Part shown: in pieces, positions 21,003-45,258 of the stretch | How positions within the stretch are numbered: position 1 is the stretch's first letter | How the letters are laid out: every line of letters starts with the position of its first letter | DNA from: a virus | Lineage: Duplodnaviria; Heunggongvirae; Uroviricota; Caudoviricetes | Direction: 5' to 3' (one strand) | DNA length: 61,488 nucleotides | Virus record (IMG/VR): IMGVR_UViG_2908567220_000003 | Made by a program: the position numbers and the translations under genes | Notes under the pieces: model-generated | What the model saw: only the letters and a program-made list of their open reading frames with translations | Database searches by the model: none | What the model was told of the DNA's origin: nothing

Positions 21003-21082
21003 AAAACATCCCTGAAAGTAGGTGCCGGTAATACTGAAAATTTATTCCATTAAATGAGCATTGTCCTCTCTCATCCATTCCG

Positions 21083-22744
21083 TTACACACCATCAAACGC
21101 CGCAAGCCGCTCTTTGTGGCTGTCGCTCATATCGAATGCAAATTCCTCATGCTCTGCCTGGAATGTGCCAAACGCCATCAGCGCCGCAACGCTCGGGTCT
21201 ATCTTGTTGGATGATTTTTTCTTGTTCGGCTTGATATTGGCGTTCGCGTCACTCTGCATCACAACATTACTCATTGACCAGGCCAGCACCGGATCACCAC
21301 GATGCACAATCACCTTCCGGTTAACAAAAACTTCGAACGATTTCGCCGCCGGACTGAAACGAAGGTATGTTTGCGGGAACGGCTCCACCTCAAATCCTGC
21401 GCCCTGTAGCTGCGTCCTCAGGTGCGTGGCGTTCCATGTATCGAAGCCCACCAGCCTGATATTGAAATTTTCTGCATCTGCCATGATGTCATCACGGATA
21501 CGGTCATAATCAATGCAGTCACCCGGTGTTGTGCGTATCCAGCCCGCCTTTACCCACTGGCGATAGATGGCGCGGTTTTTATTGGCGGGGTTCTGTAGCT
21601 GAAATTCCGGCAGATAGTGACGGGAAACCAGCATAATCTTTTTACCGACCGGAAAGGCATAGCACACGCTGGAAATATCGCTGGTTGATGATAAGTCCAG
21701 CCCCGCGTAGCACTCCTGCCCGTATAAATCCGCCTCCGCGAACGTTCCGGCGCACTCCGCCCATGCACCGTTACCCATCCACGGCGTAGCCCCCTGACAC
21801 CAGATATTGAATCGCTTGGTGAGCATTTCCACCCACTGCGACGGAATACCCCGCGCTTTCTGGATGGTTGAGGCCAGTTTTTCACGATCGACGGAAACAT
21901 CGATATTGGGATTCGCCTTTATCCACATCGCCGGATCGTCAACCTCGCTTTCATCATCCAGCTCGTAAATCAGCACGAACATGGATTCGTTCACCTCTTC
22001 ACCATCCAGTATCTGGCAGCAATAGTCGTAGTGTTGTTTACAGGCTGAAACAACGTTGCTCCCCGATGTGGTGATGGCAAATAATAACCCCTCCGGACGC
22101 GCCCCCATTCCCAGTTCAAGCGCGGAATAAACCCCGTTGTCAGGGTGCAGGTGATATTCATCCACAATGGCAAGACTCGGGTTTGTACCTTCAATGGTTG
22201 CCGCTTTTGCTGCCAGTGGTTTTAACAGGCTGTTGGTTTTCGGGTGTATCACCTTGTGTGCCTGAATATTTACCCGCTTTCGTAACGGTCGGGATAAAAG
22301 GCACATCTGACGCGCATCATCAAACACGATCCGCGCCTGATCACGACTCACGGCGGCGGTGTAAATATCCTGCTGCCCGTTTTCCATAACCAGAAACCAG
22401 TTAGCCAGGATAGCGGCGACCGTGGATTTGGCATTTTTTCGCGGTACTTCAATGAATGCGCTGGTGTATTTGCGCCGCCCGGTGGCCTTAACCTTAAAGC
22501 CCAGGATGCACGCAAAGGCGAACTGCTGCCACGGCTCCAGCTCAATGGGGCTACCGCGCATTGCGCCTTTTACGTGCGGGCACACCCTGGAAAAGGCAAT
22601 AAACCGCTCCACGACCTCCGGATCGAACGTGTAAAGGGGGTTTTCAAGGTCAGAAAAATACCGTTTAACGGCCTGTTTCAGTCGTTTACAGGCCGTAATT
22701 TTGCCGTTTTTTACGCCTTCTGCGTACTCATGCCAGGCGGTCAA
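21083..22744 (-). CDS. terL: terminase large subunit (satellite copy, intact)
   Basis: 553-aa ORF with ATPase and nuclease regions; track start codon is TTG, overlaps terS end; start uncertain. Confidence 0.85.
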   Translation of the reverse strand: MTAWHEYAEGVKNGKITACKRLKQAVKRYFSDLENPLYTFDPEVVERFIAFSRVCPHVKGAMRGSPIELEPWQQFAFACILGFKVKATGRRKYTSAFIEVPRKNAKSTVAAILANWFLVMENGQQDIYTAAVSRDQARIVFDDARQMCLLSRPLRKRVNIQAHKVIHPKTNSLLKPLAAKAATIEGTNPSLAIVDEYHLHPDNGVYSALELGMGARPEGLLFAITTSGSNVVSACKQHYDYCCQILDGEEVNESMFVLIYELDDESEVDDPAMWIKANPNIDVSVDREKLASTIQKARGIPSQWVEMLTKRFNIWCQGATPWMGNGAWAECAGTFAEADLYGQECYAGLDLSSTSDISSVCYAFPVGKKIMLVSRHYLPEFQLQNPANKNRAIYRQWVKAGWIRTTPGDCIDYDRIRDDIMADAENFNIRLVGFDTWNATHLRTQLQGAGFEVEPFPQTYLRFSPAAKSFEVFVNRKVIVHRGDPVLAWSMSNVVMQSDANANIKPNKKKSSNKIDPSVAALMAFGTFQAEHEEFAFDMSDSHKERLAAFDGV

Positions 22745-23084
22745 GCTCGTCCTCTTCCTCTGTTTCCGGTGGATTTCTGCGGCGGCTTACCGGGTCAAAA
22801 CCCAGCAAAGAAGCCATTTTGATCATTATTCTTTCTGCGTCAGCCTTTGCGCTCAGGGCGGGGTTTCTGCTCTCACTGCCCTGACTGTTAACAATGCTGA
22901 ATCCGCGCGTCGCAAGGTCTTCGACGGCTTTGCGGTATATGGAGTAGTTAACGCAATACAGCTCCAGATTGCTCCAGTCGGCGGGGGTAAGGTCTTCCCG
23001 CCCGGAAAGCTGGCGCGATTTTTCCTTCCACTGCCTGACCGCGATTTCATCCAGGTAAGCGGGGGCTTTTGGTGGTCTTGCCAT
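22728..23084 (-). CDS. terS: terminase small subunit, P27 family (satellite copy)
   Basis: ATG at 23084 (MARPPKAPAYLDEIAV) inside track ORF 22728..23225; between HNH and terL. Confidence 0.7.
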   Translation of the reverse strand: MARPPKAPAYLDEIAVRQWKEKSRQLSGREDLTPADWSNLELYCVNYSIYRKAVEDLATRGFSIVNSQGSESRNPALSAKADAERIMIKMASLLGFDPVSRRRNPPETEEEDELDRLA

Positions 23085-23372
23085 GTTCTTTTTTCGCCCA
23101 ATTATTTTCAAAAAAATTCCCGTGCACAAAAATTTGAGGAGGCGGTCGGTGTCCGGCAGGGACGGTTTCGTCCTGAAAACCTCCCCCACCCCCTCTGACA
23201 GCCTCACCAGCGATTGCGAAAACATTCCATGACCTCGCGGTCACGGTCGGTTAATCGCTTCGGTGTGGTGCGTTCTGTGCGCCCTGTCCTGTTGACTTTG
23301 TGCCCTGTCTCCTGTGTCTTCCATAAGTCACGCTGCCTTATCAGTCCACGTATCAGCCTGTTTTGCTCCTGT

Positions 23373-23813
23373 TCAGTCATCATCGCCATACATCCAGTCG
23401 TTACGATGTGCCGCCCGTTCTTCCTGCTCGCGATACATGCCCGCCTTACGGTTCGCTTTCGTGGCTGGATCTTCCCGTGTCGTCTTACGGTTGTGGCACG
23501 TCTGGCACAATGCCTGGTGGTTCCACTCAGGCCAGAAGAGAACATCACCGCCGCCATTGATGGGAATGATGTGATCCACCACAAGAGCTGGCGTATAAAT
23601 CCCCTTAGCCAGACAACGCACGCATAACGGGTTTTTGCTCAGGTACAGGGCGCGGTATTTGTCCCACTGCCGGGAATACCCACGCGCGCGGCGGTGCCCC
23701 CGTCTGGCATCCTCTGCACGCCATGCAGCCCGCCTGTGCTCTTCACACTTGCCGGACTTCACGCGCTTATTACAGCCCGGCTCAGTGCATCGCCTTAATG
23801 GTTGCCACGGCAT
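23373..23813 (-). CDS. HNH endonuclease (packaging-associated, satellite copy)
   Basis: 146-aa ORF with Cys-rich HNH motifs (CHNRKTT), directly upstream of terS; ATG verified. Confidence 0.8.
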   Translation of the reverse strand: MPWQPLRRCTEPGCNKRVKSGKCEEHRRAAWRAEDARRGHRRARGYSRQWDKYRALYLSKNPLCVRCLAKGIYTPALVVDHIIPINGGGDVLFWPEWNHQALCQTCHNRKTTREDPATKANRKAGMYREQEERAAHRNDWMYGDDD

Positions 23814-24112
23814 CAGTACACCCCCACATCACGATAAACCGACCAGAGCGCAGAAATAGCCATAGGCAGTTCAGACTGTTCCACAGGTGAAACCGCTTCC
23901 CTGTTCTCGTACAGGAAAGCGATGTACATCAGGCAACCAACACGTATTGCCGGGGTAAATTCCAGCCCGTCTTCAAAACGTTTCCCGATATGCTTCTGGC
24001 AGGCTTCCAGCGCCGCATCGGTATACATTTTCAGAAGTTCGCCTTCTCCGGAAAAGTCATCAAGGCGAAGATGTGCCCTGACTTCATCAGGTGTAATTTT
24101 GTCTTCACTCAT
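23813..24112 (-). CDS. gp6-like head-tail connector protein (satellite copy)
   Basis: ATG at 24112 (MSEDKITPDEVRAHLRLDD) with AGGTGA RBS inside track ORF 23813..24199. Confidence 0.55.
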   Translation of the reverse strand: MSEDKITPDEVRAHLRLDDFSGEGELLKMYTDAALEACQKHIGKRFEDGLEFTPAIRVGCLMYIAFLYENREAVSPVEQSELPMAISALWSVYRDVGVY

Positions 24113-25319
24113 CTTTTTCACCTTTAATTTCCACAGTCTGCTTCCATGCCTGGCTGAACTCGTCGCCACCTTCACGCGGCGGCATTCCCTCACGCTCACG
24201 GGCTTCGTTCGGATTCATGATCCCGTTCTTAATCCCTTTCTCATACGTGGCGTAACGTTCGGTAGGGGTGGCGCGCAGTAAATCGGCTGAATCAAACTCA
24301 ACCAGATAACGGGTACCAGGTACGGGAGAAGCCACCAGCAAAGCGGCCTTGATTTGCTGTTCGAAGTTCGCCAGCCACGGACGCATTGTCATAGTCAGAA
24401 ACGCGCGGCTTGCCTCACTGAAATTGCTGTAGGTGCTGTTGCTGTATTCCTGAAGAAAAATCGGCGACACGTTGAACATACGGGCAATGTCTTCAATGGA
24501 GAAGCGACGGGAGGCCAGCCATTCAGCATCCTGGTTACTCATTCCCAGTTGCTTGTAATCCATGCCCCCTTCAAGGATTGGCGTTTTTCCGGCATTTTTC
24601 GCCCCCTTGTAGCGTTCCAGTGCGTCTAATGCCTGTTTACCTTTCACGCCGTCCAGCCATTCGCCTGACGTGATAATCCCTGCCGCCATCATGCCATCTT
24701 TCATAATGCTGGCTCCGTGGCGCTGTTGAGCAAGGCCAAGCCCCAGCGCCTCACGGCAAATCGTGACAGGGGAGCGCCCCAGAAAGCCATCATCCGAGGC
24801 ATAGCGGAGATGCAGAACTTCTTCCTGTAAATACGTGCGCACCGTTCCTGTACAGGGTTCGGTGATGGTATAGCGGTATTTGTGTGCGCCTGTGCGTTCC
24901 GGTACAACACACCCCGGCGCATAAGGATGAAGTGATTTTGGCTGCCCGTCCTGCCCCCACTCAATAACCGCATAGGCGTTACCGTTCAGCAGACAGTGAC
25001 GCATCATTGTGCGTTTAAACTGGTAAGGTGTCTGGCACGAATTAGGCTGCTCATTCAGCAGAATATCTACCGGATGACTGTCCAGCCATTCCCGCGCCTC
25101 CCTGCCCTTGTCATTACGTACCAGATACAGATAACACGGCATCGTGGCCACCGCCTCAGCGATGACAGAAACCGCGTTCATCACAGCAGGCAATGATTCA
25201 GCCGTCCCGGCAGAAACATATTCTCCGGATCCGGTATTCGGTACGCCGGACAGCGCCAGAAAATCATCAATGGACAGGTTACGTTGCTCGCTTTTTTTAC
25301 GACTAAAAGGCCACCACAT
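24105..25319 (-). CDS. portal protein, HK97 family (satellite copy)
   Basis: track ORF 24105..25409; ATG at 25319 just after protease stop. Confidence 0.85.
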   Translation of the reverse strand: MWWPFSRKKSEQRNLSIDDFLALSGVPNTGSGEYVSAGTAESLPAVMNAVSVIAEAVATMPCYLYLVRNDKGREAREWLDSHPVDILLNEQPNSCQTPYQFKRTMMRHCLLNGNAYAVIEWGQDGQPKSLHPYAPGCVVPERTGAHKYRYTITEPCTGTVRTYLQEEVLHLRYASDDGFLGRSPVTICREALGLGLAQQRHGASIMKDGMMAAGIITSGEWLDGVKGKQALDALERYKGAKNAGKTPILEGGMDYKQLGMSNQDAEWLASRRFSIEDIARMFNVSPIFLQEYSNSTYSNFSEASRAFLTMTMRPWLANFEQQIKAALLVASPVPGTRYLVEFDSADLLRATPTERYATYEKGIKNGIMNPNEAREREGMPPREGGDEFSQAWKQTVEIKGEKDE

Positions 25320-25320
25320 A

Positions 25321-25881
25321 TCACAACCCCGCCAGTTCAGCCCAGCGATGACGATTATTTCCTGCCGGGCGTAATTCAGGGTGCTGTGCAAACAACGAAC
25401 GGTGGGCAATCTCCACGCCAGATTCTGGATAAGCAGGCATCGACGTTATTGTGATTTCTCGGAGTTCAGCGGCGGTTACGGTACGCAAATACGGTTTTTG
25501 CGCGATATTCCATTCTTCGCATAATGCGCGAAAGCCAAAGCTCATTCCTGTAATGTCGCCACGCGACACCAGCGTGAGCACATCTTTTCCAAGCTGGGTA
25601 TCAGGCGGTGTCAGTTCAAAACGTAGCCCGGTGTTGTCCCCAGTCAGTACCAGAGTGCCGGATTTGGTGCGCCCCAGCAGTTGGGTATAGTCATGCTCAT
25701 ACAGGCAGCGCACATCATTACCCGCCGCCAGATAGTCAGCAAAAGCCCCCGGCGTGAACTGTTCGCGGAATTCGTCCCAGATAATTTCTGAAAGGCTGTT
25801 CCAGCGAACGGCATACCCCACCAGCTTTTTATTGCTGGCGGTCAGTTCAGATGTGCGGATTTCAAAATCGGTGTTTTTCAT
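25321..25881 (-). CDS. prohead protease, HK97 family (satellite copy)
   Basis: 186-aa ORF between MCP and portal; ATG verified. Confidence 0.85.
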   Translation of the reverse strand: MKNTDFEIRTSELTASNKKLVGYAVRWNSLSEIIWDEFREQFTPGAFADYLAAGNDVRCLYEHDYTQLLGRTKSGTLVLTGDNTGLRFELTPPDTQLGKDVLTLVSRGDITGMSFGFRALCEEWNIAQKPYLRTVTAAELREITITSMPAYPESGVEIAHRSLFAQHPELRPAGNNRHRWAELAGL

Positions 25882-25935
25882 CGGTGTACTCCATAAAGCT
25901 GAAAAAGGAGGCCGCAGCCTCCTCCTTACTCATGA

Positions 25936-27105
25936 CTAGCCAGCTTTCATTTCCAGAATTTTGATGGCGTTTGAATCCACCACACCACCGCCCAGATATT
26001 TATCCGTGTGGACCTTGTAGAATCCGGGTTCAGTAATGTTGTCCGGTCGGGTGCGAATCCCTGTTACATGATCAACGATGAAATAACCACGACTGAAATC
26101 GCCAACCGCTAGCGGTGCTTTTCCTGCGCCGATGTCCGGCATGGACTCCAGGCAGAAAACAGGACGACCAAGCAACATATCCGGCGCACCTTCTTTAAGG
26201 CTGTCGCGCCAGATATAATCGCCATTCTCATTTTTCAGCTTCTGTAGTGTCCCTGCCGTGCCCGAGTTCATCACCCAGACGGCATTTTTGCGGTATTTCG
26301 CTTTCAGCTTGTAGAGAATGTCGATCAGTTCGTCCGCTGTAATGGCGGTTCCACTTGCCGCTACCACTTTTTCAATGGTGCCAAAAGCGCGGGTTTTGTC
26401 ACTGGTCGCCGCACGGGTGTAAGCCATGAAGCCTTTCGGCTTGCCGTTACCGTCGCCATTAACAAAATCATCCTCTTCGGTGCTGGCGAACGTGTCGGCA
26501 ATTTCGGAGGATAACCAGCCCAGAATATCCACCTCTGAAAAATCCAGGATTTCCTGCGTGGTTTTCGGGTAGGCGTAGATCGGATTCAGCTTGATGGTTA
26601 CACGTTCAATTTTCGGGGTGTTGGTTTCACTACGTGCGCTGCCTTCTGTGCCTCGTCCTACAGTTGCGCCGCCAGTGGAAACCAGTTTCTGAAACTCATT
26701 TGATTTTGCGGTCTTCACGGTCGCGATCACGCGCATAACACTGTCATCCTGTAGCTGGCGCATGACTTCGCGATCAAGCTCAGGAATTACGGTATATCCG
26801 CCATCCCTGCCGCTGTCAGTGCTGGTGGTCAGTGATCGCACATCTCCGGTTACGATGTAGTTACGCAATTCATCAGATGATAATTTCTGGATGCCCGTTC
26901 CTGGCTTGCTGCGTTCTTCATCAGCCACAGACTCGAGGCGGGAAATTTCTGTGTCGAGGGAATCGGCTTTTGCACGCAGTTCATCAAACTGTTTGCCCTC
27001 GTCATCGTTCAGGCTGCGGTTTTCACTGTCGGCTTTTTCCAGCAGGGATCGCATCTGGTTTTTCAGGGCGGTTTTTTGCTGGCGGAGTTCGATTAATTTC
27101 TTCAT
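25936..27105 (-). CDS. major capsid protein, HK97 family (satellite copy)
   Basis: 389-aa ORF with coiled-coil delta domain; ATG verified; paralog of 16633..17850. Confidence 0.85.
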   Translation of the reverse strand: MKKLIELRQQKTALKNQMRSLLEKADSENRSLNDDEGKQFDELRAKADSLDTEISRLESVADEERSKPGTGIQKLSSDELRNYIVTGDVRSLTTSTDSGRDGGYTVIPELDREVMRQLQDDSVMRVIATVKTAKSNEFQKLVSTGGATVGRGTEGSARSETNTPKIERVTIKLNPIYAYPKTTQEILDFSEVDILGWLSSEIADTFASTEEDDFVNGDGNGKPKGFMAYTRAATSDKTRAFGTIEKVVAASGTAITADELIDILYKLKAKYRKNAVWVMNSGTAGTLQKLKNENGDYIWRDSLKEGAPDMLLGRPVFCLESMPDIGAGKAPLAVGDFSRGYFIVDHVTGIRTRPDNITEPGFYKVHTDKYLGGGVVDSNAIKILEMKAG

Positions 27106-27391
27106 GAAGGTTTTCTCGTATTGGTTAAGATTCAGGACGTGAAACCAACACGGAGGGAGCGCCGCCCGACACTCTCGGCATCTCGCAGATCAACCCGGCA
27201 TCGCGCAGGGGGTCAGGCGGCATTGTGGCGGCTCACGTCTGAGTGCCACACGCCAACATATACATAAAAATCAGTATGTAAACACCTGTCAGTAAGGCCG
27301 AACAACCACGAAAAAACACGAACAAATAATTTACAAAAGAAGTAAACCATGGCCTATTATTGCTACCTCTGACTACAACAAAGGACGCATC

Positions 27392-27898
27392 ATGAATTTA
27401 AGCGCAATGGTATACCCTGATACTTTCATAATTAATGGCGAATCATTTAAAGGTAAAAGAAACGCAAAAGAAAACAAGGTATTAATTCCATATACAAATG
27501 AACCGGAAGTAACTATTGGTCAACACATTATCCAGTGTGTCGGTAAAAACGAGATAAATCTAAAAATTATAGATATGAAGTTGCTTCCCAATGGAACCCT
27601 CAGACAGGGAACCAACCATCCAAATATGTTGACGCTCTATATTGAAAATATCACGGGAAATGAACATATGACGCCACCTAAAAGTAATACATTTAACATT
27701 GGTTCAATTAGTGGTAATCAAGTGCAGATAGGTGAGCATAACCATATGCTGGTAAACATCAGCATCACTGAACTGGTTGAAAAAGTCTCTAAATCGGGGG
27801 ATGTACAAGCCAAATCAGTATTAAAGCAGTTACTGGAAAACAGTACCGTTGCCAGCATTGTTGGGGCTGGCGCAAGTGCCTTAATAGGCTTACTGTAA
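27392..27898 (+). CDS. hypothetical protein with C-terminal hydrophobic tail (satellite accessory gene)
   Basis: 168-aa ORF, ATG with AAAGGA RBS, AT-rich, opposite strand to the rest of the element. Confidence 0.5.
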   Translation: MNLSAMVYPDTFIINGESFKGKRNAKENKVLIPYTNEPEVTIGQHIIQCVGKNEINLKIIDMKLLPNGTLRQGTNHPNMLTLYIENITGNEHMTPPKSNTFNIGSISGNQVQIGEHNHMLVNISITELVEKVSKSGDVQAKSVLKQLLENSTVASIVGAGASALIGLL

Positions 27899-27904
27899 AA
27901 AAAT

Positions 27905-27924
27905 GGCCTGGATTTTACCAGGCC
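27905..27924. terminator. bidirectional Rho-independent terminator between convergent genes
   Basis: stem GGCCTGG / CCAGGCC with 6-nt loop, flanked by A7 upstream and T-rich downstream. Confidence 0.6.
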
Positions 27925-27933
27925 TTTATCATT

Positions 27934-28182
27934 TTACCGTTTCACGGGATCCCGCATTCTGCTTCTTAGTTTCCACAGGTATTCGATCATCGCTTCCACC
28001 TGCTCACGGTTGGTTGCGAAAATTTCCCCGGTCAGTGAGCTGCGCAGAAAATCATGATGATCCACAACAAACAACGCATCGGAAGAAAGCAGACGGCGAT
28101 ATTTTTTTGCTGTCGTGGTTTCCAGATCATCAAAACCATGAAACTTTTTATGTTGCTGAACTTCTTCAAATGTCACAGGCAT
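27934..28182 (-). CDS. hypothetical protein
   Basis: ATG at 28182 with AGGAGG RBS inside track ORF 27934..28221. Confidence 0.5.
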   Translation of the reverse strand: MPVTFEEVQQHKKFHGFDDLETTTAKKYRRLLSSDALFVVDHHDFLRSSLTGEIFATNREQVEAMIEYLWKLRSRMRDPVKR

Positions 28183-28227
28183 GTTTCCTCCTGCTACCAC
28201 GATACCAGAAACAGTTAACAACCGTTA

Positions 28228-28512
28228 TCAATTATCCCCTTTTTTTTTCGGGTAGTTCCTGAACATCTCACCGCCAGGTTTCTGTAAGCCCATCCCGGTA
28301 TGTGTGCGGTTTATGGCCTCTTTCAGTATTCCGAAATTATCCGGTATGACTGGTTGGCGCGCTGCCTTACGGATACATTCCGCGCGACGCTTTGCCACCT
28401 GTTCGCGCTCCTTGTCAGTGCTCACCAGCCACATAACATCAGCCCAACGTGCCGCCGCTCTCCGGTACAGCCCTTTAGCCTCCAGTTCTTCCGCTTTGCT
28501 GTCTTTAATCAT
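28228..28512 (-). CDS. PerC-family transcriptional activator-like protein
   Basis: ATG at 28512 (MIKDSKAEELEAKGLYRRAAARW); assignment from remembered PerC N-terminal motif. Confidence 0.5.
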   Translation of the reverse strand: MIKDSKAEELEAKGLYRRAAARWADVMWLVSTDKEREQVAKRRAECIRKAARQPVIPDNFGILKEAINRTHTGMGLQKPGGEMFRNYPKKKGDN

Positions 28513-28527
28513 GCTGTACCTCACTGC

Positions 28528-28953
28528 TTAAAACGGTATCCCGTCCCCGTACGGATCATCGTGCTGGCCTGTCTGTTGTTTTGCCCTGTTCAGTGCGTCA
28601 GTAGCCTGGCCCTGCTGGCCTTTTTTGCCGCCCGGTCGCGCCGTTCGCGCACTGATTACGCTGTCTGCGATGACCTGCCAGCCCTGCCGCATTTCGCCGT
28701 TCTGGCCTGTCCACTGGCTTACCTGCATGTTACCCGCCACACTCACCAGTTCGCCTTTCTGGTGTTTTGCCAGTGCATCGGCCTGTCTGCCAAACGCCAG
28801 GACGGATAACCACATCGTCGCCGTTCCGTCATCTGCCTGGCTGCACGGCAGGGGAACCGCCATACTCGCCATAGCCATTTGTGTCCCCTTGCTGGTGGTC
28901 TTTAACTGCGGGTCAGCCACCAGCCGCCCGTAAGCCGCTATCTGTGCTGTCAT
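28528..28953 (-). CDS. ssb: single-stranded DNA-binding protein (SSB-like OB fold with C-terminal DIPF tip)
   Basis: 141-aa ORF ending GDGIPF, Gly/Gln-rich linker; ATG verified. Confidence 0.65.
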   Translation of the reverse strand: MTAQIAAYGRLVADPQLKTTSKGTQMAMASMAVPLPCSQADDGTATMWLSVLAFGRQADALAKHQKGELVSVAGNMQVSQWTGQNGEMRQGWQVIADSVISARTARPGGKKGQQGQATDALNRAKQQTGQHDDPYGDGIPF

Positions 28954-29017
28954 GCTGTCTGTTCTCCGGTTTTAACGTTGATTGTTACGCTTGTTTACAC
29001 CCTTACGGTGAAATCCT

Positions 29018-29140
29018 GCGGGTTATAATCGCACTTTTGCGGGTTATAACTGCCGTTTTGCGGGTTACGTGCGGGTTACTGATTTCCTTTTTATTCATAC
29101 AGTTAATGCACTTATACACAGGATAACCCGCATAACCCGC
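29018..29140. repeat. iteron cluster 2 (candidate replication origin): four direct GCGGGTTA(T/C) repeats, AT-rich spacer, two inverted copies
   Basis: direct copies at 29018, 29039, 29060, 29071; AT-rich 29081..29120; inverted ATAACCCGC at 29123 and 29132; downstream of primase/helicase gene. Confidence 0.7.
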
Positions 29141-29163
29141 AACTTTTCACCTCACACAGGGGG

Positions 29164-31284
29164 TTAATCTTCTGCCTCAGGCTGGAACATCAGCACGTAA
29201 AAAACATGCTGCTTCCCCCCAATTTTGCCGAGCGCCTTTTTCTTGTAACGGCGATCGTTACCCGCTTCCAGCATTCCGGCAGCACTCAACGCGCGGGCAA
29301 AGTGAGACGGATTAAATCCCTGTGCTATCTCACCCTCAAATACATGCGGGAACGTGTAAAAACGGAACTCGTCATCTTCGTTTCTGATACTCCCCTTTCT
29401 GTATCCGGCAAGCTCTTTAATCGGTAAATCACGCTCGTCGGTGTTGGGCCACGGAAGGTATCTGCTGAATCCGAACGACGCTAAAAAAGCCTCTGCCTGT
29501 TCAACCATCTGTTTAAACTCCCTGTTACCCGTGCCGAACTCCTTCACCCAGGCATTAAAATTATGCTGAATGGCATCGCGGCACGCCTGAACATCCCAAC
29601 CAGTAATATGGACGGAAAGCACCAGCGCCGACTCCAGCATGGCGAATCGTTCCCCCACACGGTGAACCTGTTCGCCGTAACTCTCCGGTATCAGGTTGCG
29701 CCACCGTTCACGGCATGCCCTTACCGTATCCTTTGCCTCCTGCTGGTGGTCTGCCAGCCATTTAACCCATTCACGCCCCGCCGCCCCGTGATTTTCTGTC
29801 CAGGCATCCTTTAACGCGTCTGCGTGTGCCTTTCCGGTGCTGTATTCGTGAAACTGCGTGGCTTTTTCCATTGGCACGTTAAGCAGGCGGACAAGCTGCC
29901 CCGCCTTGACTTTTATCCCCTCCGTTTTGAGGAATGTCTCAACGTCCATTTCTCCGGTGCTGATTGCCACCGTGCGCCAGTGTTTGATCTCCCTGTTGCC
30001 GCCGTCCTTCGCCCCCTGTAATTTCCCCGAACCGTTAAACAGCGTATAAGCCGACGTGGACACTTCCCGCGCGTTTCCGGCCTGACCTATTTCATCCAGG
30101 GGTAATAGCCCGTCATTGTGCGCCTCTGCCTCGTTGGCGATGCCTAACGCTGTACCGTACCAGGTCAGCCGTTGCGCGTCCGGCTCTCCCCATAAACTGG
30201 ATGCGATGTTCTGTGTGGTGGTTTTCCCTGCCGATGACTGTTCGAAAAGATGTACCCCGAAGCCGTCAGCACCCACCAGCCCGATTAATGGTGCGGATAA
30301 CGATACCGCCACACCCAGCATCATGGACGGATTACCACCAGCCAGCCGCGCAACGGTATCGCGCCAGCCCTCCGCCGTTCCTGCCACAGAATAGCCATTA
30401 ACGGCAGCCGTTTTTCCGGTAAACAGGATCGGTTTTTCAGACTCACCAATGACTGAACCGTCCGGCATGATGTACGCACCAAAATGCCAGCCCGTTGTTG
30501 TGCTTAACTGCCATTCCTCATGGTTTCCGCTTAACTGCATCCAGTCAGCCAGGATAGCCCTGTATTTGCCGTTAGTTGTTACGTTAAGGCCGTGGTCTTT
30601 CAGCAACCGCCAGCCGTCACGGTCGCCAATGCCCCCGCACGGAACCGCCATTGTGATGACTTCATGGTTTGCGGGTTTCTTCCAGCGCATCACGCGGTAA
30701 TGCTCTTTGCCGATTGTCCCCGTTCCCAGTAGTTCAAGCGGGGAACATAACCACGTCTCAGGCCGGATAATTTCGCCTGACTGCTTGTCAACTTTGGGCG
30801 TTACCCAGAAAACACCATCGGCGCGACTTTCAACGCGGGGCTTTAATTCATCATCGCCCTGGCTTTCTGTGATTTTTTTCTTTAAGGGCAACACCAGACT
30901 TTCCCCGCGCTCGTATTCGTCTTTCAGCCGGGCAAGCTGCGGTGTCCAGTCCTCCAGTAGTTCACCGTTCTCGTCACAAAAACTGGCTTCCTTAACACCA
31001 GCCACTGCCAGCAGGGTTTCAATCTGTAACGCCTGTCTGTCATCCAGCTTTCCGGCACGTCTGACCATGGCGCGTAACCGTCCATCATCCACAATACGCA
31101 GGTTTTCCAGATTACCCAGGTCACGCCGCCCGAGATAAACAGGTGGTATTTTGTCGCCGCGCTTTCTGGCTTCTCCGCCCTGCATGTAATGCTCTGCGTG
31201 GCTGTATGCGTCATCCCCCGCAAAAATCACTGCATCCTCGCCTTTATCTTTCGGTAACAGTTTTACGTTCGGTGCCAGTTTCAT
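29164..31284 (-). CDS. replication primase/helicase (DUF927-type P-loop NTPase)
   Basis: 706-aa ORF with Walker A (SSAGKTTT); ATG verified; adjacent to iterons. Confidence 0.65.
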   Translation of the reverse strand: MKLAPNVKLLPKDKGEDAVIFAGDDAYSHAEHYMQGGEARKRGDKIPPVYLGRRDLGNLENLRIVDDGRLRAMVRRAGKLDDRQALQIETLLAVAGVKEASFCDENGELLEDWTPQLARLKDEYERGESLVLPLKKKITESQGDDELKPRVESRADGVFWVTPKVDKQSGEIIRPETWLCSPLELLGTGTIGKEHYRVMRWKKPANHEVITMAVPCGGIGDRDGWRLLKDHGLNVTTNGKYRAILADWMQLSGNHEEWQLSTTTGWHFGAYIMPDGSVIGESEKPILFTGKTAAVNGYSVAGTAEGWRDTVARLAGGNPSMMLGVAVSLSAPLIGLVGADGFGVHLFEQSSAGKTTTQNIASSLWGEPDAQRLTWYGTALGIANEAEAHNDGLLPLDEIGQAGNAREVSTSAYTLFNGSGKLQGAKDGGNREIKHWRTVAISTGEMDVETFLKTEGIKVKAGQLVRLLNVPMEKATQFHEYSTGKAHADALKDAWTENHGAAGREWVKWLADHQQEAKDTVRACRERWRNLIPESYGEQVHRVGERFAMLESALVLSVHITGWDVQACRDAIQHNFNAWVKEFGTGNREFKQMVEQAEAFLASFGFSRYLPWPNTDERDLPIKELAGYRKGSIRNEDDEFRFYTFPHVFEGEIAQGFNPSHFARALSAAGMLEAGNDRRYKKKALGKIGGKQHVFYVLMFQPEAED

Positions 31285-31580
31285 TTTTTACCTCTGGATG
31301 CGCTGAGCATGCTTTTTATTTTCTTAATATTTTCCCGTGCTTTTTCCCTGCTGGTGGGCTTACCGCGTGTTGCGTTCTGTACCAGAGAAAAATCACGCCG
31401 GAACTGATAAACAGGCATCACGCAGTCATAGCCGTACCCATCACGGCGGTAAGTAACGCACCGTCCCGCCACGCTTTTAATCGTTACCGTGCCGCCGTAG
31501 TTATCCCGGAAAATATCGCCGGGGCGGATTTCAGGCCGAGCGGGGCCGCTGGCAGTAAAGCCAGAAATTTTCTGTTTCAT
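31281..31580 (-). CDS. hypothetical protein
   Basis: 99-aa ORF, ATG verified, stop overlaps primase start. Confidence 0.4.
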   Translation of the reverse strand: MKQKISGFTASGPARPEIRPGDIFRDNYGGTVTIKSVAGRCVTYRRDGYGYDCVMPVYQFRRDFSLVQNATRGKPTSREKARENIKKIKSMLSASRGKK

Positions 31581-31585
31581 GGTTT

Positions 31586-31819
31586 TTATTTCCCGGTGTG
31601 TTGCTCTTTATATCTGTCGTGCAAGATGTCTATTTCTTGCAGTTCATTTATTACAGGCTCAAGAAGCGTTATTAATGCTGTTGCAATATTGCTGTTGCGT
31701 TTATCTCTTTCATTATCGCCAAGCGTTTCAAGCCATAAGCGCAATATTTCAAGCATGTTTTCACTGTAAGCAAGTGCGCTGTATGCATGATCTACTGTGT
31801 CATTGTAAATATCATGCAT
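31586..31819 (-). CDS. hypothetical protein
   Basis: 77-aa ORF, ATG verified. Confidence 0.4.
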   Translation of the reverse strand: MHDIYNDTVDHAYSALAYSENMLEILRLWLETLGDNERDKRNSNIATALITLLEPVINELQEIDILHDRYKEQHTGK

Positions 31820-31822
31820 GGC

Positions 31823-32023
31823 TCACCCCCCCTGAATATTCGCGTTAATCATTCCGACACGCTCTGCGAGTTCCTGTAATGATTCCCTTGTTGCGACAAT
31901 TGCTTCATCTGGCAGGTGGTAATTACTCACCACGCGACCTTTATCCACATTGACTAGCAACTGCCCGGTGAATTTCTCACGAAACTGGATGCGGTTAAGG
32001 TCGGTAAGTGACAGGTTAATCAT
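31823..32023 (-). CDS. hypothetical protein
   Basis: 66-aa ORF, ATG verified. Confidence 0.4.
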   Translation of the reverse strand: MINLSLTDLNRIQFREKFTGQLLVNVDKGRVVSNYHLPDEAIVATRESLQELAERVGMINANIQGG

Positions 32024-32219
32024 GGTGTACCCCCTGACGAATACGGGCGGCGAATACCATCACGCAGCCAGCCGGGGATTGCTGGCGTGCTTCCTGTTCG
32101 CTGGTGGCCTCAATGGTAATCACGCGCGGTTGTGCCGTGCTCAGGGCGATAAAACGCCAGATATATTTATTCAGGTTGTGCGAGTCCCGCCCTTGCGGGT
32201 GTGTGGTATGATTTCTCAT
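32016..32219 (-). CDS. hypothetical protein, first gene of leftward operon from the divergent control region
   Basis: ATG at 32219 with GAGGT RBS; only the 3-prime 67 codons of track ORF 32016..33089 are plausible. Confidence 0.4.
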   Translation of the reverse strand: MRNHTTHPQGRDSHNLNKYIWRFIALSTAQPRVITIEATSEQEARQQSPAGCVMVFAARIRQGVHHD

Positions 32220-32316
32220 AGCTACCTCGATACTCTTGCTATCGTTGGTGGTTAGACGCCCTGCATGTGTTGCGAGCACTGCGGGGCGTTGCTTAATTTG
32301 AGTGACAAAACTCAAA

Positions 32317-32395
32317 CTGTGCGCACAGATTAAAATCATGTGTGCGCACATGTCAATACTTAACATCTCATTTTTTTTGCTGTATTGTGTGCGCC
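32317..32395. promoter_or_regulatory. divergent promoter/operator region with TGTGCGCACA palindromes
   Basis: perfect 10-bp palindromes at 32319..32328 and 32341..32350 (23 bp centre to centre) plus TGTGTGCGCC half-site near 32386. Confidence 0.6.
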
Positions 32396-32424
32396 CATAA
32401 AGTCCATTTAAGTGAGGTGCATCA

Positions 32425-32622
32425 ATGTCTAGCGGTAACACAAACAACAAATCAGCAAAGAAAAATATTCGATTCCCACATGAGCTTATAGATGGGATTG
32501 ATGCCAGCGTTGAACAAGAAAAATTAACTAATCCTAGTGCTAATTTTTCCGCATGGGTCTTAGATGCCTGTGGACGCAAATTAAAATATGAACAGCGCCG
32601 GAAGGCCAAAGAATCAGAATAA
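32425..32622 (+). CDS. ribbon-helix-helix-type DNA-binding regulator (candidate satellite master repressor)
   Basis: 65-aa ORF, ATG with GTGAGGTG RBS; NIRFPHELIDGIDASVEQ pattern fits beta-strand plus helix of RHH fold. Confidence 0.45.
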   Translation: MSSGNTNNKSAKKNIRFPHELIDGIDASVEQEKLTNPSANFSAWVLDACGRKLKYEQRRKAKESE

Positions 32623-32664
32623 TCACTATCAGCGCCGTGGTGTGAGTAACTACGGCGCATTGCT

Positions 32665-32853
32665 ATGCAGGACAACACAATGACCGATAAAGAATTGACC
32701 AAAACATTATCACCGACACGGAAAAGACGGCGCAGAAAGATAGAGCATGAATCAGAAAGATTCGCACCTTGTTCGTTTGCTCTTGAGAAATTCCTTAAAG
32801 AGCGCAGGAAAAAGCTCTCGTTGCAAACCTTGGAACGAACCAAATCTGACTGA
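32665..32853 (+). CDS. hypothetical small basic protein
   Basis: 62-aa ORF, ATG verified; followed by GC hairpin and T-run. Confidence 0.35.
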   Translation: MQDNTMTDKELTKTLSPTRKRRRRKIEHESERFAPCSFALEKFLKERRKKLSLQTLERTKSD

Positions 32854-33233
32854 TCACATTGCCCACCAGCCGCAAATGTGGCATTGTTGGTGATGCTTTT
32901 GTTTTCCCTTGTTCCCACTGGCGACCCTTTTGCGGTCGCCTTTGTTTTGCCTGTTATCCGGCAATAGTGGCGCTTCGTCACCTGTCTGATATAATTCCAC
33001 AGCTTATATTCATTTTTTGCGCAGTAGGTTAATTGTTCGCAAGGGCGCTCCGGCAACGGGGCGCTTTTTGTTTTTACCCACCAGCACAATAAAAATCTTC
33101 ATTTTCCATTTTTGTAAAATTTCATGCTTTCCGGACGACTGGTCATATGTCATTTTTTAGCAGAAGATTTTGCCTTGCTGGTGGGTAGCTTCCCGGTCAA
33201 CACGATGTACCGTATAATCAACACCGCGTGTGG

Positions 33234-33812
33234 TTACTGAATACGCTCACCAAAGTAAAACTCAGGCTGGTATTCACGTATCAGCCTTTTTTCTTCTTCC
33301 TCCAGCTCACGCTTTTTGCGCTTACATGCCTGTAGCTCCCTCCCCTTCTCACTGGCACTTATCTGGTATTGCTCTTTGCGGCGGGAAAAATCCTGTAATG
33401 CGCCCCACGGGATACCATAAGCCCCCGTTTTTCTGATACCCGGTATCACATTTCTGAATACCCAGTTACTGAAACGATGAGCAAATGTGCCAGGCGTCGT
33501 TGCTTTGCGGCTGCGGGCTATTAGTTTGTAGAAACCTGATTCGGAGATAATGCTCATATTCTGATTTCCTCCGGGGGTGTAAGTTAAATTTACTCCCTTT
33601 TCGTCATCATCAAGCATCTGCAACGCCGTACGCGAATTGGTCAGTTCCAGCGCAGCACAAACATCCTTTGCAACAAACCACGGATCGCCGTTTAGATACA
33701 CCACACGAACATCCACGCCATCAAAGCGCAGAACGACCAGATCACGAATATCACAGAATTTTTTCACATGACGTGCGTCACCCTTGCCCGTCACGGCAAT
33801 ATTTTTATTCAT
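33234..33812 (-). CDS. Bro-N domain protein (antirepressor-like)
   Basis: 192-aa ORF with N-terminal Bro-N-like region and C-terminal charged coiled coil; ATG verified. Confidence 0.65.
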   Translation of the reverse strand: MNKNIAVTGKGDARHVKKFCDIRDLVVLRFDGVDVRVVYLNGDPWFVAKDVCAALELTNSRTALQMLDDDEKGVNLTYTPGGNQNMSIISESGFYKLIARSRKATTPGTFAHRFSNWVFRNVIPGIRKTGAYGIPWGALQDFSRRKEQYQISASEKGRELQACKRKKRELEEEEKRLIREYQPEFYFGERIQ

Positions 33813-33869
33813 TGCTTTTTACCTCACATACAAAAAACCCCGCATTGCGTGGTGCGGGGTTGTCGGTAA

Positions 33870-34148
33870 TTACTTATTGGCGTTTTTGTATGGGCTGTTT
33901 ACTTCCTTTACTCCTGGCGGATGCATAACCCACCAGAGCACATCAGAGAGCAACCAGGAAACAGACACTTTCCCTAAATGAGCACGAGCAGGAAATGCTC
34001 CCTCCTGTTCAAGTACCCAACGTCTGCTTCTTGAAAGCCCGGTACGATTGGCACACTCATGTTCGCGTATACGGCGATCATACGGTTCGCCATGATCTTT
34101 CAGAATCTGAATGCGTTCTTCGGGTGTAGGATAAATAAATTTTTGCAT
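33870..34148 (-). CDS. alpA: AlpA-family transcriptional regulator
   Basis: ATG at 34148 with AGGTGA RBS; motif GLSRSRRWVLEQEGAFPARAHLGKVSVSWLLSDV; downstream of integrase. Confidence 0.7.
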   Translation of the reverse strand: MQKFIYPTPEERIQILKDHGEPYDRRIREHECANRTGLSRSRRWVLEQEGAFPARAHLGKVSVSWLLSDVLWWVMHPPGVKEVNSPYKNANK

Positions 34149-34379
34149 AAAAATATCACCTATAAAAAAACCCGCCAAAAGACGGGTTGATTATATCTCA
34201 TTTAATTTAGCTCAGGGTTTCCATTCACCTTTTACCCATTCCAGCACCTCAGATAAGCGCCAGACTTTTGTTTGTGGGCCAATACATATTTTTCGTAACC
34301 GTCTCATTTAAACCGTCTTTCGCCTCCCTTTCCTGTTTCCGATACTAATGTCCATTTTCGCAGTAAAGGGACATTTAAG

Positions 34380-35030
34380 ATGAATGCACGAAAAGCGGTA
34401 CTGGCAGACAATCCGGAATTGATCCTGCGTGTGCTACAGCTGAGATTTGACGAGTCACTGTCGTACCCGCGCATTTCTGCGCAGACCGGTGTCAGCAAAA
34501 CCGCCATTTTTTCTCTGGTGAGGCGATTTCACCAGGTATTCACTGACTGGCCTCTTTCCGGTGAATATTCCTGCGGGCAACTGGCCCGGGCTCTTTTCCC
34601 GGGGCGATACCCTTCAGCCCCGACCGTGACTCAGCCTGTGAAAGCAGAGAAACCCCGCCGGAACCGATTTTCACCGGAGTTTAAATGGAGACTGGTTCAG
34701 CAAACTCTTTTACCCGGTGCCTGTGTCGCACAAATAGCTCGAGAGAATGGAATTAACGATAACCTGCTCTTTAACTGGCGGCATCTCTGGCGTAACGGTG
34801 GCCTGCAACCGCCCGGCGAACATGAAACATCGCTACTTCCCGTGACGTTAACTCCGGAGCCGGATAATAAAATCCCGGCACCAGTGCAGATACCTGAACA
34901 GATAAATACACTGCCAGACAGTCTGTGCTGCGAGCTGGTTCTGCCGGCCGGAACTCTCAGGCTGAAAGGTGAACTGACACCGGCGTTATTACAGACACTT
35001 ATCCGCGAAATGAAAGGGAGCAGCCACTGA
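34380..35030 (+). CDS. IS66-family accessory protein (orf1, HTH)
   Basis: 216-aa ORF, first of three in the IS. Confidence 0.7.
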   Translation: MNARKAVLADNPELILRVLQLRFDESLSYPRISAQTGVSKTAIFSLVRRFHQVFTDWPLSGEYSCGQLARALFPGRYPSAPTVTQPVKAEKPRRNRFSPEFKWRLVQQTLLPGACVAQIARENGINDNLLFNWRHLWRNGGLQPPGEHETSLLPVTLTPEPDNKIPAPVQIPEQINTLPDSLCCELVLPAGTLRLKGELTPALLQTLIREMKGSSH

Positions 35031-35377
35031 TGATATCTCTCCCTGCCGGTTCGCGTATCTGGCTGGTTGCCGGTATCACCGATATGCGAAATGGCTTTAA
35101 CGGCCTGGCCTCAAAAGTTCAGAACGTCCTGAAGGATGACCCGTTCTCCGGGCATCTGTTCATCTTCCGCGGACGCCGGGGTGACCAGATAAAAGTGCTG
35201 TGGGCTGACAGTGACGGACTGTGCCTCTTCACCAAACGCCTGGAGCGGGGCCGCTTCGTCTGGCCGGTCACCCGCGATGGAAAGGTTCACCTTACTCCGG
35301 CTCAGTTGTCCATGCTTCTCGAAGGCATCGACTGGAAGCACCCGAAACGAACGGAACGCGCTGGCATCCGCATATAA
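35030..35377 (+). CDS. tnpB: IS66-family TnpB (orf2)
   Basis: 115-aa ORF, ATGA overlap with orf1, typical IS66 orf2 size and sequence. Confidence 0.8.
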   Translation: MISLPAGSRIWLVAGITDMRNGFNGLASKVQNVLKDDPFSGHLFIFRGRRGDQIKVLWADSDGLCLFTKRLERGRFVWPVTRDGKVHLTPAQLSMLLEGIDWKHPKRTERAGIRI

Positions 35378-35396
35378 CCCGTTGTAAAGTGAGGAT

Positions 35397-36968
35397 ATGG
35401 ACACCTCACTTGCTCATGAGAATGCCCGCCTGCGGGCACTGTTGCAGACGCAACAGGACACCATCCGCCAGATGGCGAAATACAACCGCCTGCTCTCACA
35501 GCGGGTGGCGGCTTATGCTTCCGAAATCAACCGGCTGAAGGCGCTGGTTGCGAAACTGCAGCGCATGCAGTTCGGTAAAAGCTCAGAAAAACTTCGCGCT
35601 AAAACCGAACGGCAGATACAGGAAGCCCAGGAGCGAATCAGCGCACTTCAGGAAGAAATGGCGGAAACGCTGGATGAGCAATATGACCCGGTACTGCCAT
35701 CCGCCCTGCGCCAGTCTTCAGCCCGTAAGCCGTTACCGGCCTCACTTCCCCGTGAAACCCGGGTCATCCGGCCGGAAGAGGAATGCTGCCCGGCCTGTGG
35801 TGGTGACCTCAGTCCTCTGGGGTGTGATGTGTCAGAGCAACTGGAGCTTATCAGCAGCGCTTTTAAGGTTATCGAAACACAACGTCCGAAACTGGCCTGT
35901 TGCCGGTGCGACCATATCGTGCAGGCACCAGTACCTTCAAAACCCATTGCACGCAGTTATGCCGGAGCGGGGCTTCTGGCTCATATCGTCACCGGGAAGT
36001 ATGCAGACCATCTGCCGTTATACCGCCAGTCAGAAATATACCTTCGTCAGGGCGTGGAACTGAGCCGCGCCACGCTGGGGCGCTGGACCGGTGCCGTTGC
36101 TGAACTGCTGGAGCCGCTGTATGACGTGCTGCGCCAGTATGTGCTGATGCCCGGTAAAGTCCATGCGGATGATATCCCCGTTCCGGTCCAGGAGCCGGGC
36201 AGTGGTAAAACAAGAACTGCCCGGCTGTGGGTCTATGTCCGTGATGACCGTAACGCCGGTTCACAGATGCCCCCGGCGGTCTGGTTCGCGTACAGCCCGG
36301 ACCGGAAAGGTATCCATCCACAGAATCACCTGGCCGGTTACAGCGGTGTGCTTCAGGCAGATGCTTACGGTGGTTACCGGGCGTTATACGAATCCGGCAG
36401 AATAACGGAAGCCGCGTGTATGGCCCATGCCCGGAGAAAAATCCACGATGTGCATGCAAGAGTGCCAACCGACATCACCACGGAAGCCCTGCAGCGTATC
36501 GGTGAACTGTATGTCATCGAGGCAGAAGTCCGGGGATGTTCAGCAGAACAGCGTCTGGCAGCAAGAAAAGCCAGAGCGGCTCCACTGATGCAGTCACTGT
36601 ATGACTGGATACAGGAACAGATGAAAACACTGTCGCGTCACTCGGATACGGCAAAAGCGTTCGCATACCTGCTGAAACAGTGGGAGGCCCTGAACGTGTA
36701 CTGCAGTAATGGCTGGGTGGAAATCGACAACAACATCGCAGAGAACGCCTTACGGGGAGTGGCCGTAGGCCGGAAAAACTGGCTCTTCGCGGGTTCCGAC
36801 AGCGGTGGCGAACATGCGGCGGTGTTGTACTCGCTGATCGGCACATGCCGTCTGAACAATGTGGAACCAGAAAAATGGCTGCGTTACGTCATTGAGCATA
36901 TCCAGGATTGGCCGGCAAACCGGGTACGCGATCTGTTGCCCTGGAAAGTTGATCTGACCTCTCAGTAA
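35397..36968 (+). CDS. tnpC: IS66-family transposase (orf3)
   Basis: 523-aa ORF with leucine-zipper-like N-terminus and Cys-rich motif. Confidence 0.8.
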
Positions 36969-37122
36969 ATATCAATACGGTTCTGGCGAGCCGCTTACTA
37001 TTTTTCGTGGAAATTTTCCTTCCTTTTCAAGTAACGATCTGTGTCTCCTGCCAAGAGCGGTTAACCATGCACATTCATCTTCCTTAATCATCCTGTCGAT
37101 TGTTTCATCATTTTCAAGTTCT

Positions 37123-38346: not shown

Positions 38347-38518
38347 GTGATTTATAACCCGTTTTTGCAATACACAGTGCAATACACAAATGATGAAAAC
38401 AGCCAGAACCTTCCAGAAAAAACAAAAACGACGAACAAGAAAAAAATCTTTTTCTTTCATTTGGTTACTAAAAAAATCAGGACAGGTCGCACTGTTGTTA
38501 CGGCGTGATGTTACTTTC

Positions 38519-44868: not shown

Positions 44869-45008
44869 TAAACCGTATAACAAACACTCAATCAATACTT
44901 AACAGAACTTTTATTTTTGACAAACATAAAATATTTTCAACAATATCCTGAGCCAGGTATATTTCAGTATAAGGCTCTGCCGGAAGGAATCTGGAAGAAT
45001 GAATATAG

Positions 45009-45082
45009 CGCGCTGTACTGGATTCGAACCAGTGACCGATTGCTTAGAAGGCAATTGCTCTGTCCGGCTGAGCTAACAACGC
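45009..45082 (-). tRNA. tRNA-Arg (anticodon UCU)
   Basis: manual fold: 7-bp acceptor stem, D arm GCTC/GAGC, anticodon loop CTTCTAA, T loop GGTTCGAATCC; no encoded CCA. Confidence 0.75.
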
Positions 45083-45183
45083 TGAATACCGATAATGGAC
45101 CGCCATCGGGGACCCGCCCCCGCACCAACAACCCTGTTATCGTGTCGTCTGCTCTTCCTGATAAGCTAATGGCGGTTTGTGAT

Positions 45184-45258
45184 GGTGGCCCTTGCTGGAT
45201 TTGAACCAGCGACCTGGCGATTATGAGTCGCTCGCTCTCACCACTGAGCTAAAGGGCC
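45184..45258 (-). tRNA. tRNA with anticodon CAU (Ile2/Met type, ileX-like)
   Basis: manual fold: acceptor GGCCCTT, anticodon loop CTCATAA, T loop GGTTCAAATCC, encoded CCA. Confidence 0.75.

Follow-up and report, generated by a model that had tools for sequence, protein, structure and literature searches.

A satellite in the terminase gene of a helper prophage

The window (the whole stretch of viral DNA analysed here; 61,488 nucleotides, IMG/VR record IMGVR_UViG_2908567220_000003) holds two genes for a large terminase (terL): one belongs to a helper prophage and is split in two, and the other is carried by the satellite that splits it. Our subject is the place in the satellite's own terL that lies opposite the codons at which the helper gene is interrupted, and at which the satellite differs by one base from the 7-bp core of its integration site. 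We suggest that this near-match follows from conservation of the terminase protein, and that the mismatch may contribute to a barrier against self-integration as a by-product rather than as a dedicated safeguard. The features that define the integration are the following.

20568..38518, minus strand: satellite, predicted to be a helper-embedded, capsid-forming phage-inducible chromosomal island (PICI), itself split by an IS66-family element at 34297-36995
20561..20567, minus strand: core TTACCAA at the junction of the terL-side end of the satellite with the C-terminal fragment of helper terL (attR of Tommasini et al., PMC10111431 supplement)
38519..38525, minus strand: core TTACCAA at the junction of the N-terminal fragment of helper terL with the int side of the satellite (attL of Tommasini et al.)
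19831..20567, minus strand: C-terminal fragment of helper prophage terL, annotated in strain 042 as 'TerL endonuclease subunit, missing N-terminus'
38519..39546, minus strand: N-terminal fragment of helper prophage terL, its frame open across the junction into int

When the two window junctions are compared with each other, TTACCAA is the sole block of identity. The heptamer occurs seven times in the window, with no excess over shuffled sequences, and a pair of minus-strand copies lies precisely at the breakpoints of the helper terL. Fusing 38519..39546 to 19831..20560 at the core yields an unbroken open reading frame (ORF) for a TerL of 585 amino acids. The integration site falls at residues 341-343 of this protein (window 38519-38527 and 20559-20567), past the ATPase model (112-268) and ~60 residues inside the Pfam TerL_nuclease model (283-563), and the N-terminal fragment therefore retains the whole ATPase domain; the C-terminal fragment is annotated alone as 'endonuclease subunit'. 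An 807-amino-acid ORF (37123-39546, minus strand) runs in frame from the N-terminal fragment of helper TerL through ~57 codons of attP arm into the integrase. The terL-int fusion ORF of Escherichia coli 042 is flagged in the published catalogue with the remark 'reannotate term_int fusion' (PMC10111431, Supplementary File 1).

Read along the minus strand, the satellite encodes an integrase, helix-turn-helix (HTH) regulators, Bro, an Icd-like protein, a DUF927 primase, a single-stranded DNA-binding protein (SSB), and PerC, followed by a packaging module of major capsid protein, prohead protease, portal, connector, HNH, terS, and terL. Its replication and packaging genes all lie on the strand of the helper late operon. 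From 20000 to 30000 the window is 100% identical to E. coli 042, where the RefSeq annotation of the matching region describes an HK97-like prophage late operon with a terL split by a ~15 kb element; the window comes from a different strain, with about 98.5% identity over the wider region beyond this stretch.

Helper-embedded PICIs (HE-PICIs) are a published class, whose 491 mapped members occupy 14 sites within late genes of prophages (Tommasini, Mageeney & Williams 2023, NAR Genom Bioinform 5:lqad036; PMC10111431). The satellite has the features of this class in that it splits a helper terL that rejoins to a 585-amino-acid ORF and carries its genes on the strand of the late operon. It shares with site group A:Terminase_1:246 an att block at the homologous terL codons; the block is listed as 'ttaccaa' in the catalogue entry for the 042 counterpart (Eco33.15.A_Terminase_1_246, FN554766.1/2250958-2235714, helper Eco33.57.zinT|mtfA; PMC10111431, Supplementary File 1), and the variant 'tcacgaa' likewise appears in the published lists (PMC10111431). 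Judged from gene content alone, as annotated by RefSeq in the identical 042 region and by Pfam for terL, the satellite also conforms to a capsid-forming PICI (cf-PICI), having its own capsid, portal, protease, connector, HNH, TerS, and TerL, without tail or lysis genes. Based on these features, we identify the satellite as an HE-PICI of site group A:Terminase_1:246, and by its gene content as one of the capsid-forming kind. The integrase and the arms of the reconstructed attP point to the same group:

37123..38346, minus strand: tyrosine integrase of 407 amino acids (from MALNKL) with Arm-DNA-bind_3 and Phage_integrase domains, its DNA 100% identical to that of the 042 element
20643..20662, minus strand: doubled TGTATTGC arm motif on the P arm of the reconstructed attP, half-sites starting at -98 and -86 from the core centre
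38367..38386, minus strand: doubled TGTATTGC arm motif on the P' arm, just upstream of int, half-sites starting at +136 and +148

The published diagnostic for the group is a doubled motif tgTGTATTGCantgTGTATTGCa on both attP arms, ~81 bp upstream and ~132 bp downstream of the attP centre (PMC10111431), and the doubled motifs of the reconstructed attP agree with this geometry. The integrase would fall in the clade of the HE-PICI Eco567.11capE, judging by its complete DNA identity to that of the catalogued member and by its domains. An AlpA-like excisionase is encoded next to it. We propose that this arm-binding tyrosine integrase would recombine a 7-bp overlap, either TTACCAA or TCACGAA, with the homologous codons of helper terL.

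Codons of the satellite's own terL opposite the integration site

The satellite's own terminase gene and the segment under study are located as follows.

21083..22744, minus strand: the satellite's own terL, 553 amino acids, with TerL_ATPase and TerL_nuclease domains (Pfam)
21801..21826, minus strand: segment under study, own-TerL codons M-L-T-K-R-F-N-I, opposite helper F-F-T-K-H-M-N-V in the alignment
21816..21822, minus strand: own-terL heptamer TCACCAA, with one mismatch to the core TTACCAA (position 2) and one to TCACGAA (position 5)

On the minus strand, 21826..21801 reads ATG CTC ACC AAG CGA TTC AAT ATC TG and translates as M L T K R F N I, the codons CTC ACC AAG CGA standing in phase 0 of the own-terL ORF. 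Own TerL and the rejoined helper TerL are 32% identical and align without a gap around the site (helper VNFFTKHMNVW, own VEMLTKRFNIW), demonstrating that the own-terL position is truly homologous to the integration site. A preliminary description of this DNA, made from the letters of the window, had read TCACCAA in place of the core TTACCAA within CTC ACC AAG CGA, had placed it opposite the integration site, and had stated that the motif LTKRF is retained; the in-frame reading, the ungapped alignment, and the translation bear out these three statements. The 26 bases would thus be the codons of a conserved hydrophobic-Thr-Lys-(Arg/His)-x-Asn-(Ile/Val)-Trp stretch of an HK97-type large terminase.

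We considered how closely such codons should resemble the core given that the two genes are homologous. Read in frame, the heptamer begins at the second base of a hydrophobic codon, which is Phe TTT in helper terL and Leu CTC in the satellite gene, takes in the whole Thr codon, and ends at the second base of the Lys codon. Positions 1, 3, 4, 6, and 7 are fixed by the protein (second base of the hydrophobic codon, AC of Thr, AA of Lys), leaving only the wobble positions 2 and 5 free. As a null expectation, we paired at random the allele frequencies of two IMG/VR samples of 120 loci each, gathered with back-translated patterns. The own-type terL loci had TGACCAA (69), TCACCAA (33), TAACCAA (4), TTACCAA (2), and others (12), and the intact helper-type terL loci had TTACCAA (92), TCACGAA (14), TCACAAA (10), TCACCAA (3), and TTACTAA (1), giving probabilities of 0.02, 0.76, and 0.22 for zero, one, and two mismatches, respectively. 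One mismatch is the modal outcome (76%), and the resemblance at six of seven positions is therefore no more than chance given homology; we propose that it follows from protein conservation, with five positions fixed and two at wobble.

The C that makes the mismatch is common to the whole clade of own terL genes. TCACCAA is present in all 25 IMG/VR loci with a terL at least 93% identical in nucleotides to that of the window, including elements at the 3' end of hpt (L026, L053), at the fis identity block (L076), and beside a tRNA gene (L101), as well as elements whose ends are unlike those of the window element; two carriers, L043 and L065, have integrases just 41-47% identical to that of the window. 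A change specific to the terL-targeting lineage is thereby ruled out, and the codon choice is not an adaptation to an integrase that targets TTACCAA. Avoidance of self-targeting should leave a difference specific to, or enriched in, lineages with a matching core; what we find is a difference in 25 of 25 loci clade-wide, and a neutral rate of perfect matches of 2%. The idea, implied by the preliminary description, that a single base is kept as a safeguard is therefore not supported. The mismatch would be an inherited, clade-wide codon choice (Leu CTC) that is older than, or independent of, the terL-targeting integrase.

Independent lineages resemble the window in this respect. In Arsenophonus nasoniae (L277-L280, IMG genome 2836755666), four diverged HE-PICI copies with the same packaging module lie at the homologous helper-terL codons with a 15-bp block, AATTTTATAACAAAG; their own terL, 75% identical in protein to that of the window, reads GAGATGTTAACCAAA at the homologous place, matching the block at 8 of 15 positions, and the equivalent of the heptamer has one mismatch (TAACAAA in own terL versus TAACCAA). 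In the Klebsiella group A:Terminase_1:132, the 10-bp block AATATCACGA compares with AATACCACCT (7/10) or AGTACCACCT (6/10) in own terL. The general pattern in these sequences is of a near-match apparently imposed by protein conservation, with the differences at wobble or non-conserved positions.

Core alleles and the barrier to self-integration

Scans of IMG/VR with the integrase and with the junction pattern gave two core alleles, TTACCAA and TCACGAA. Sixteen IMG/VR genomes have two readable junctions, and in each of them the heptamer is the same at both (12 TTACCAA, 4 TCACGAA); the window, with TTACCAA at both, is the seventeenth such genome. Each core allele equals a synonymous allele of helper terL (TTT ACC AAA or TTC ACG AAA), and these two are the commonest helper alleles, accounting for 92 and 14 of the 120 intact sites and for at least 634 and at least 50 complete genomes. 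Because a single crossover between unlike cores would leave the two junctions with different heptamers, as would an exchange elsewhere than in the heptamer, their agreement indicates that attP itself exists in two alleles. We reject a crossover outside the heptamer, since it would yield disagreeing junctions wherever the alleles differ, and the 16 genomes have no such pair. Thus, overlap identity does seem to matter to this integrase, as judged from the junction sequences. Three additional junctions from a metagenome scan all carry known alleles.

Occupied and intact sites were counted in 5426 complete E. coli genomes with 49-nt junction queries, any 28-mer seed of which includes the heptamer. 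The counts of intact alleles are lower bounds because helper variants with GGGTAAC for GGGTCAC at the end of the query cannot seed a 28-mer when unoccupied.

TTACCAA: 655 genomes matched, 21 occupied by a satellite, at least 634 intact
TCACGAA: 63 genomes matched, 13 occupied (8 of the listed matches being near-identical OkiPb isolates), at least 50 intact
TCACCAA: 3 genomes matched, 0 occupied, at least 3 intact

The apparent occupancy of the helper alleles is unequal (21/655 for TTACCAA versus 13/63 for TCACGAA). An element whose core equals the own-terL heptamer TCACCAA was not found at any occupied site in the 5426 genomes, among which only three have an intact helper allele of this kind.

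Own terL reads TCACCAA in all 17 readable elements, whichever core they use, and it is one mismatch away from either core allele. The two core alleles interleave among elements (IMG/VR loci L122-L139, L003-L080, L263-L276) whose int regions are nearly identical, with just 1-2 nt changed in 1400. A single nucleotide in 1400 separates L126 from both L124 and L139, and 1-2 nt separate L131 and L133 from the set L130, L132, and L134. This interleaving points to repeated switching of the core or to recombination between elements, and offers a modest handle on the drift of att specificity in this integrase clade.

The heptamer is one part of the site. The flanks of attB are essentially invariant among the 120 intact helper alleles in IMG/VR; those of the own-terL site match attB at 10 of 20 positions (44 of 87 nt overall). 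Perfect heptamers also occur inside the elements. The window has one in inverted orientation within int:

37946..37952, plus strand: perfect TTACCAA, inverted, with flanks matching attB at 10 of 20 positions, equal to the own-terL site

TCACGAA-core elements (L126-L136) have one direct perfect copy of their core 860 bp in from the junction and two to four inverted copies; evidently, a perfect heptamer alone is tolerated inside elements. Moreover, an off-target member of the same site group, Eco2384.15.A246_DUF333|yeaN, has junctions that share only GAA (PMC10111431), with TTGCACT facing TTACCAA at the heptamer positions, and heterology in the overlap is therefore no absolute block. By a lambda-type rule, under which attP and attB are identical across the overlap, junction cores should agree and alleles should match those of the helper, as they do in 16 of 16 genomes, yet this off-target insertion departs from it.

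Taking these data together, self-integration is probably rare, and we attribute its rarity to an own-terL site that would lack helper-type flanks and present a heterologous overlap; which of these features prevents recombination is our inference. The mismatch may add to this barrier as a by-product of the protein's conservation. For this explanation as a whole, comprising the identity of the satellite, the conserved codons, the origin of the near-match, and the by-product nature of the mismatch, we estimate a joint probability of roughly 0.7. The claim that one mismatch blocks self-integration, as the preliminary description had it, stands in part: a need for identity of the heptamer fits the junctions, but a single base as the barrier is not supported in view of flanks at 10/20, perfect internal heptamers, and off-target junctions sharing only GAA. 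That description had also proposed comparing the homologous codons in relatives; no perfect core was found there, with TCACCAA in 17 of 17 readable elements, but the search had little power because the integrase forms a single tight lineage and only three complete genomes have an intact TCACCAA helper allele. In E. coli, 36 of the 5426 complete genomes contain the integrase at ≥95% identity. A scan of contigs from 185,579 species for more distant terL-targeting integrases gave only two Xenorhabdus loci at 66% identity, neither in terL, and IMG/VR gave one further relative at 66%; nothing nearer to the window integrase was found outside its E. coli lineage in these two scans. With a single tight lineage and no close outgroup, a powerful comparative test within the site group is impossible.

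Several points weigh against our explanation. The IMG/VR samples are phylogenetically redundant, making the frequencies behind the null rough. Identity of the flanks serves as a proxy for the core-type binding sequence of this integrase. A safeguard predicts that own terL should never match the core in use perfectly, and this holds for all the lineages that we examined, although the neutral expectation of ~98% predicts the same.

The alternative that survives best, which we nevertheless consider unlikely, is that the mismatch is irrelevant, with discrimination lying wholly in the flanks of the overlap (the core-type integrase sites) and in the attP arms, and that even a perfect own-terL heptamer would stay unused. 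It would account for perfect internal heptamers, direct and inverted, in apparently stable elements, and for the divergence of own terL from nearly invariant attB flanks; the published argument for the sister element 11capE likewise invokes 'extensive sequence differences' and not one base (PMC10111431). However, the strict agreement of the junctions shows that the heptamer itself is constrained, and the off-target chromosomal insertion has very different flanks, arguing that flanks are no absolute filter either.

A second alternative, to which we give a low probability, is that selection holds Leu CTC over CTT to keep the overlap heterologous, with the result that the integrase cannot join attP to own terL. 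Because the own-terL site and the attP core are in direct orientation, their recombination would delete ~1.26 kb. In line with selection, the two junctions of an element never disagree in core, and their cores follow the helper alleles; own terL stands one mismatch away, never zero, from both core alleles and from the Arsenophonus core-equivalent; and the 5426 complete E. coli genomes contain no TCACCAA-core junction. Identity across an exchange segment of ~7 bp tends to be enforced by tyrosine integrases, and late genes borne by satellites are real targets, 24 HE-PICIs (C:CLP_protease:110) having landed in a late gene of another PICI (PMC10111431). Against selection, the terL clade carries TCACCAA throughout, even in elements that sit at hpt, fis, and tRNA sites and for which TTACCAA is nothing to be avoided; the neutral chance of a non-perfect match is already ~98%; the core would arise only from Leu CTT, carried by 2 of 120 family members; perfect core heptamers are tolerated elsewhere in the elements; the own-terL flanks are just half like attB; and with so few intact TCACCAA helper alleles, the absence of occupied ones is uninformative. 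If the single base were truly a safeguard, it would mean that a mobile element edits a synonymous site to avoid cutting itself, and that the evolution of a satellite's captured late genes is tied to the choice of integration site.

A related and very improbable idea is that the attP overlap switches between TTACCAA and TCACGAA but may be barred from the one-step intermediate TCACCAA, which as the own-terL heptamer would make the element cut itself. In that case, the rare TCACCAA helper alleles would be a refuge, and the captured late gene would constrain which helper alleles the satellite parasitises.

Least probable of all is that rare integration into the satellite's own or a sibling terL happens despite the mismatch and goes unseen as deleted or nested products are lost: the core switches between near-identical elements and, with the off-target insertion, this implies recombination across heterology, but no junction of attP with own terL was present in any locus examined, and the interleaving could also stem from homologous recombination between elements.

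Overall, the overlap mismatch is plausible as a contributing factor because identity of the overlap is constrained, but several lines of sequence evidence point to a neutral by-product.

Relation to known elements

The IS66-family element in the satellite (34297-36995; ORFs of 216, 115, and 523 amino acids) lies near the 3' end of int and in the adjoining HTH gene, and is missing from E. coli 042. A second, identical copy lies in the early region of the helper prophage, from 47689 to about 50390. The helper prophage also has two tRNA genes (45008-45258, minus strand) between the antiterminator and lysis genes, one for tRNA-Arg(tct) and one with a CAT anticodon (Met per ARAGORN, Ile per the 042 annotation).

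Upstream of int, the integrase relatives at 66% identity (L140 and L142, Xenorhabdus, 9644-10000; L141, 9600-10000) have a doubled TGTATTGC-like motif. The element of L140 and L142 immediately follows the genes for gpA terminase and gpW, in the place of lambda B (portal), probably equivalent to B:Phage_portal_2:21, a putative site in the 2023 catalogue (PMC10111431). Pfam gave no match on the 71-amino-acid fragment of the truncated Xenorhabdus ORF that we guessed to be portal, and the gene order (gpA terminase, gpW, fragment) supports that guess only indirectly. In L141, the element interrupts a gene for an EamA-like transporter and may represent an off-target event.

Both the element and the concept are already known. 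The argument about self-integration was made for 11capE by comparing the homologous segment of its own capsid gene (PMC10111431), and the idea in the preliminary description re-derives that published inference for a sister site group, whose block differs by only one base; no comment on the own-terL codons of the A:Terminase_1:246 group was found in the searched text and supplements of PMC10111431. The value of the present analysis is mostly clarifying: the element is of a published kind, its near-match is accounted for by protein conservation, and the idea of self-integration is in the literature.

The closest known system is the 042 counterpart, Eco33.15.A_Terminase_1_246, which shares with the window element its family and site, complete DNA identity of the integrase, the att block, and the terL-int fusion ORF; the window element differs in coming from another strain and in its IS66-family insertion. 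Eco567.11capE, the model HE-PICI at E:Phage_cap_E:80 (PMC10111431), is similar in that it sits in a helper late gene, for capsid, and carries its own homologue of that gene; its identity block is 10 bp with extensive differences, whereas that of the window element is 7 bp with one base different, the remaining differences lying in the flanks. With cf-PICIs such as EcCIEDL933 (Alqurainy et al.; bioRxiv 10.1101/2022.09.08.507074), the window element has in common the packaging module and the lack of tail genes, and cf-PICI-like elements at hpt, fis, and tRNA sites have an own terL of the same clade. That study chose attachment sites 'never occupied by prophages' as well as attB sites in the chromosome (bioRxiv 10.1101/2022.09.08.507074), whereas the window element sits in a prophage gene.

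The final comparison is with the integrase (Int) of phage lambda, in which the likeness lies in identity across a 7-bp overlap, and both the agreeing core alleles and the off-target insertion fit the lambda picture. Lambda Int reportedly needs identity of the 7-bp overlap between partners for efficient strand exchange, and rare recombination at heterologous secondary sites (saf) is said to be able to alter the attP overlap. The window integrase differs from lambda Int in being P4-like, with an Arm-DNA-bind_3 domain and a doubled TGTATTGC arm motif of its own.

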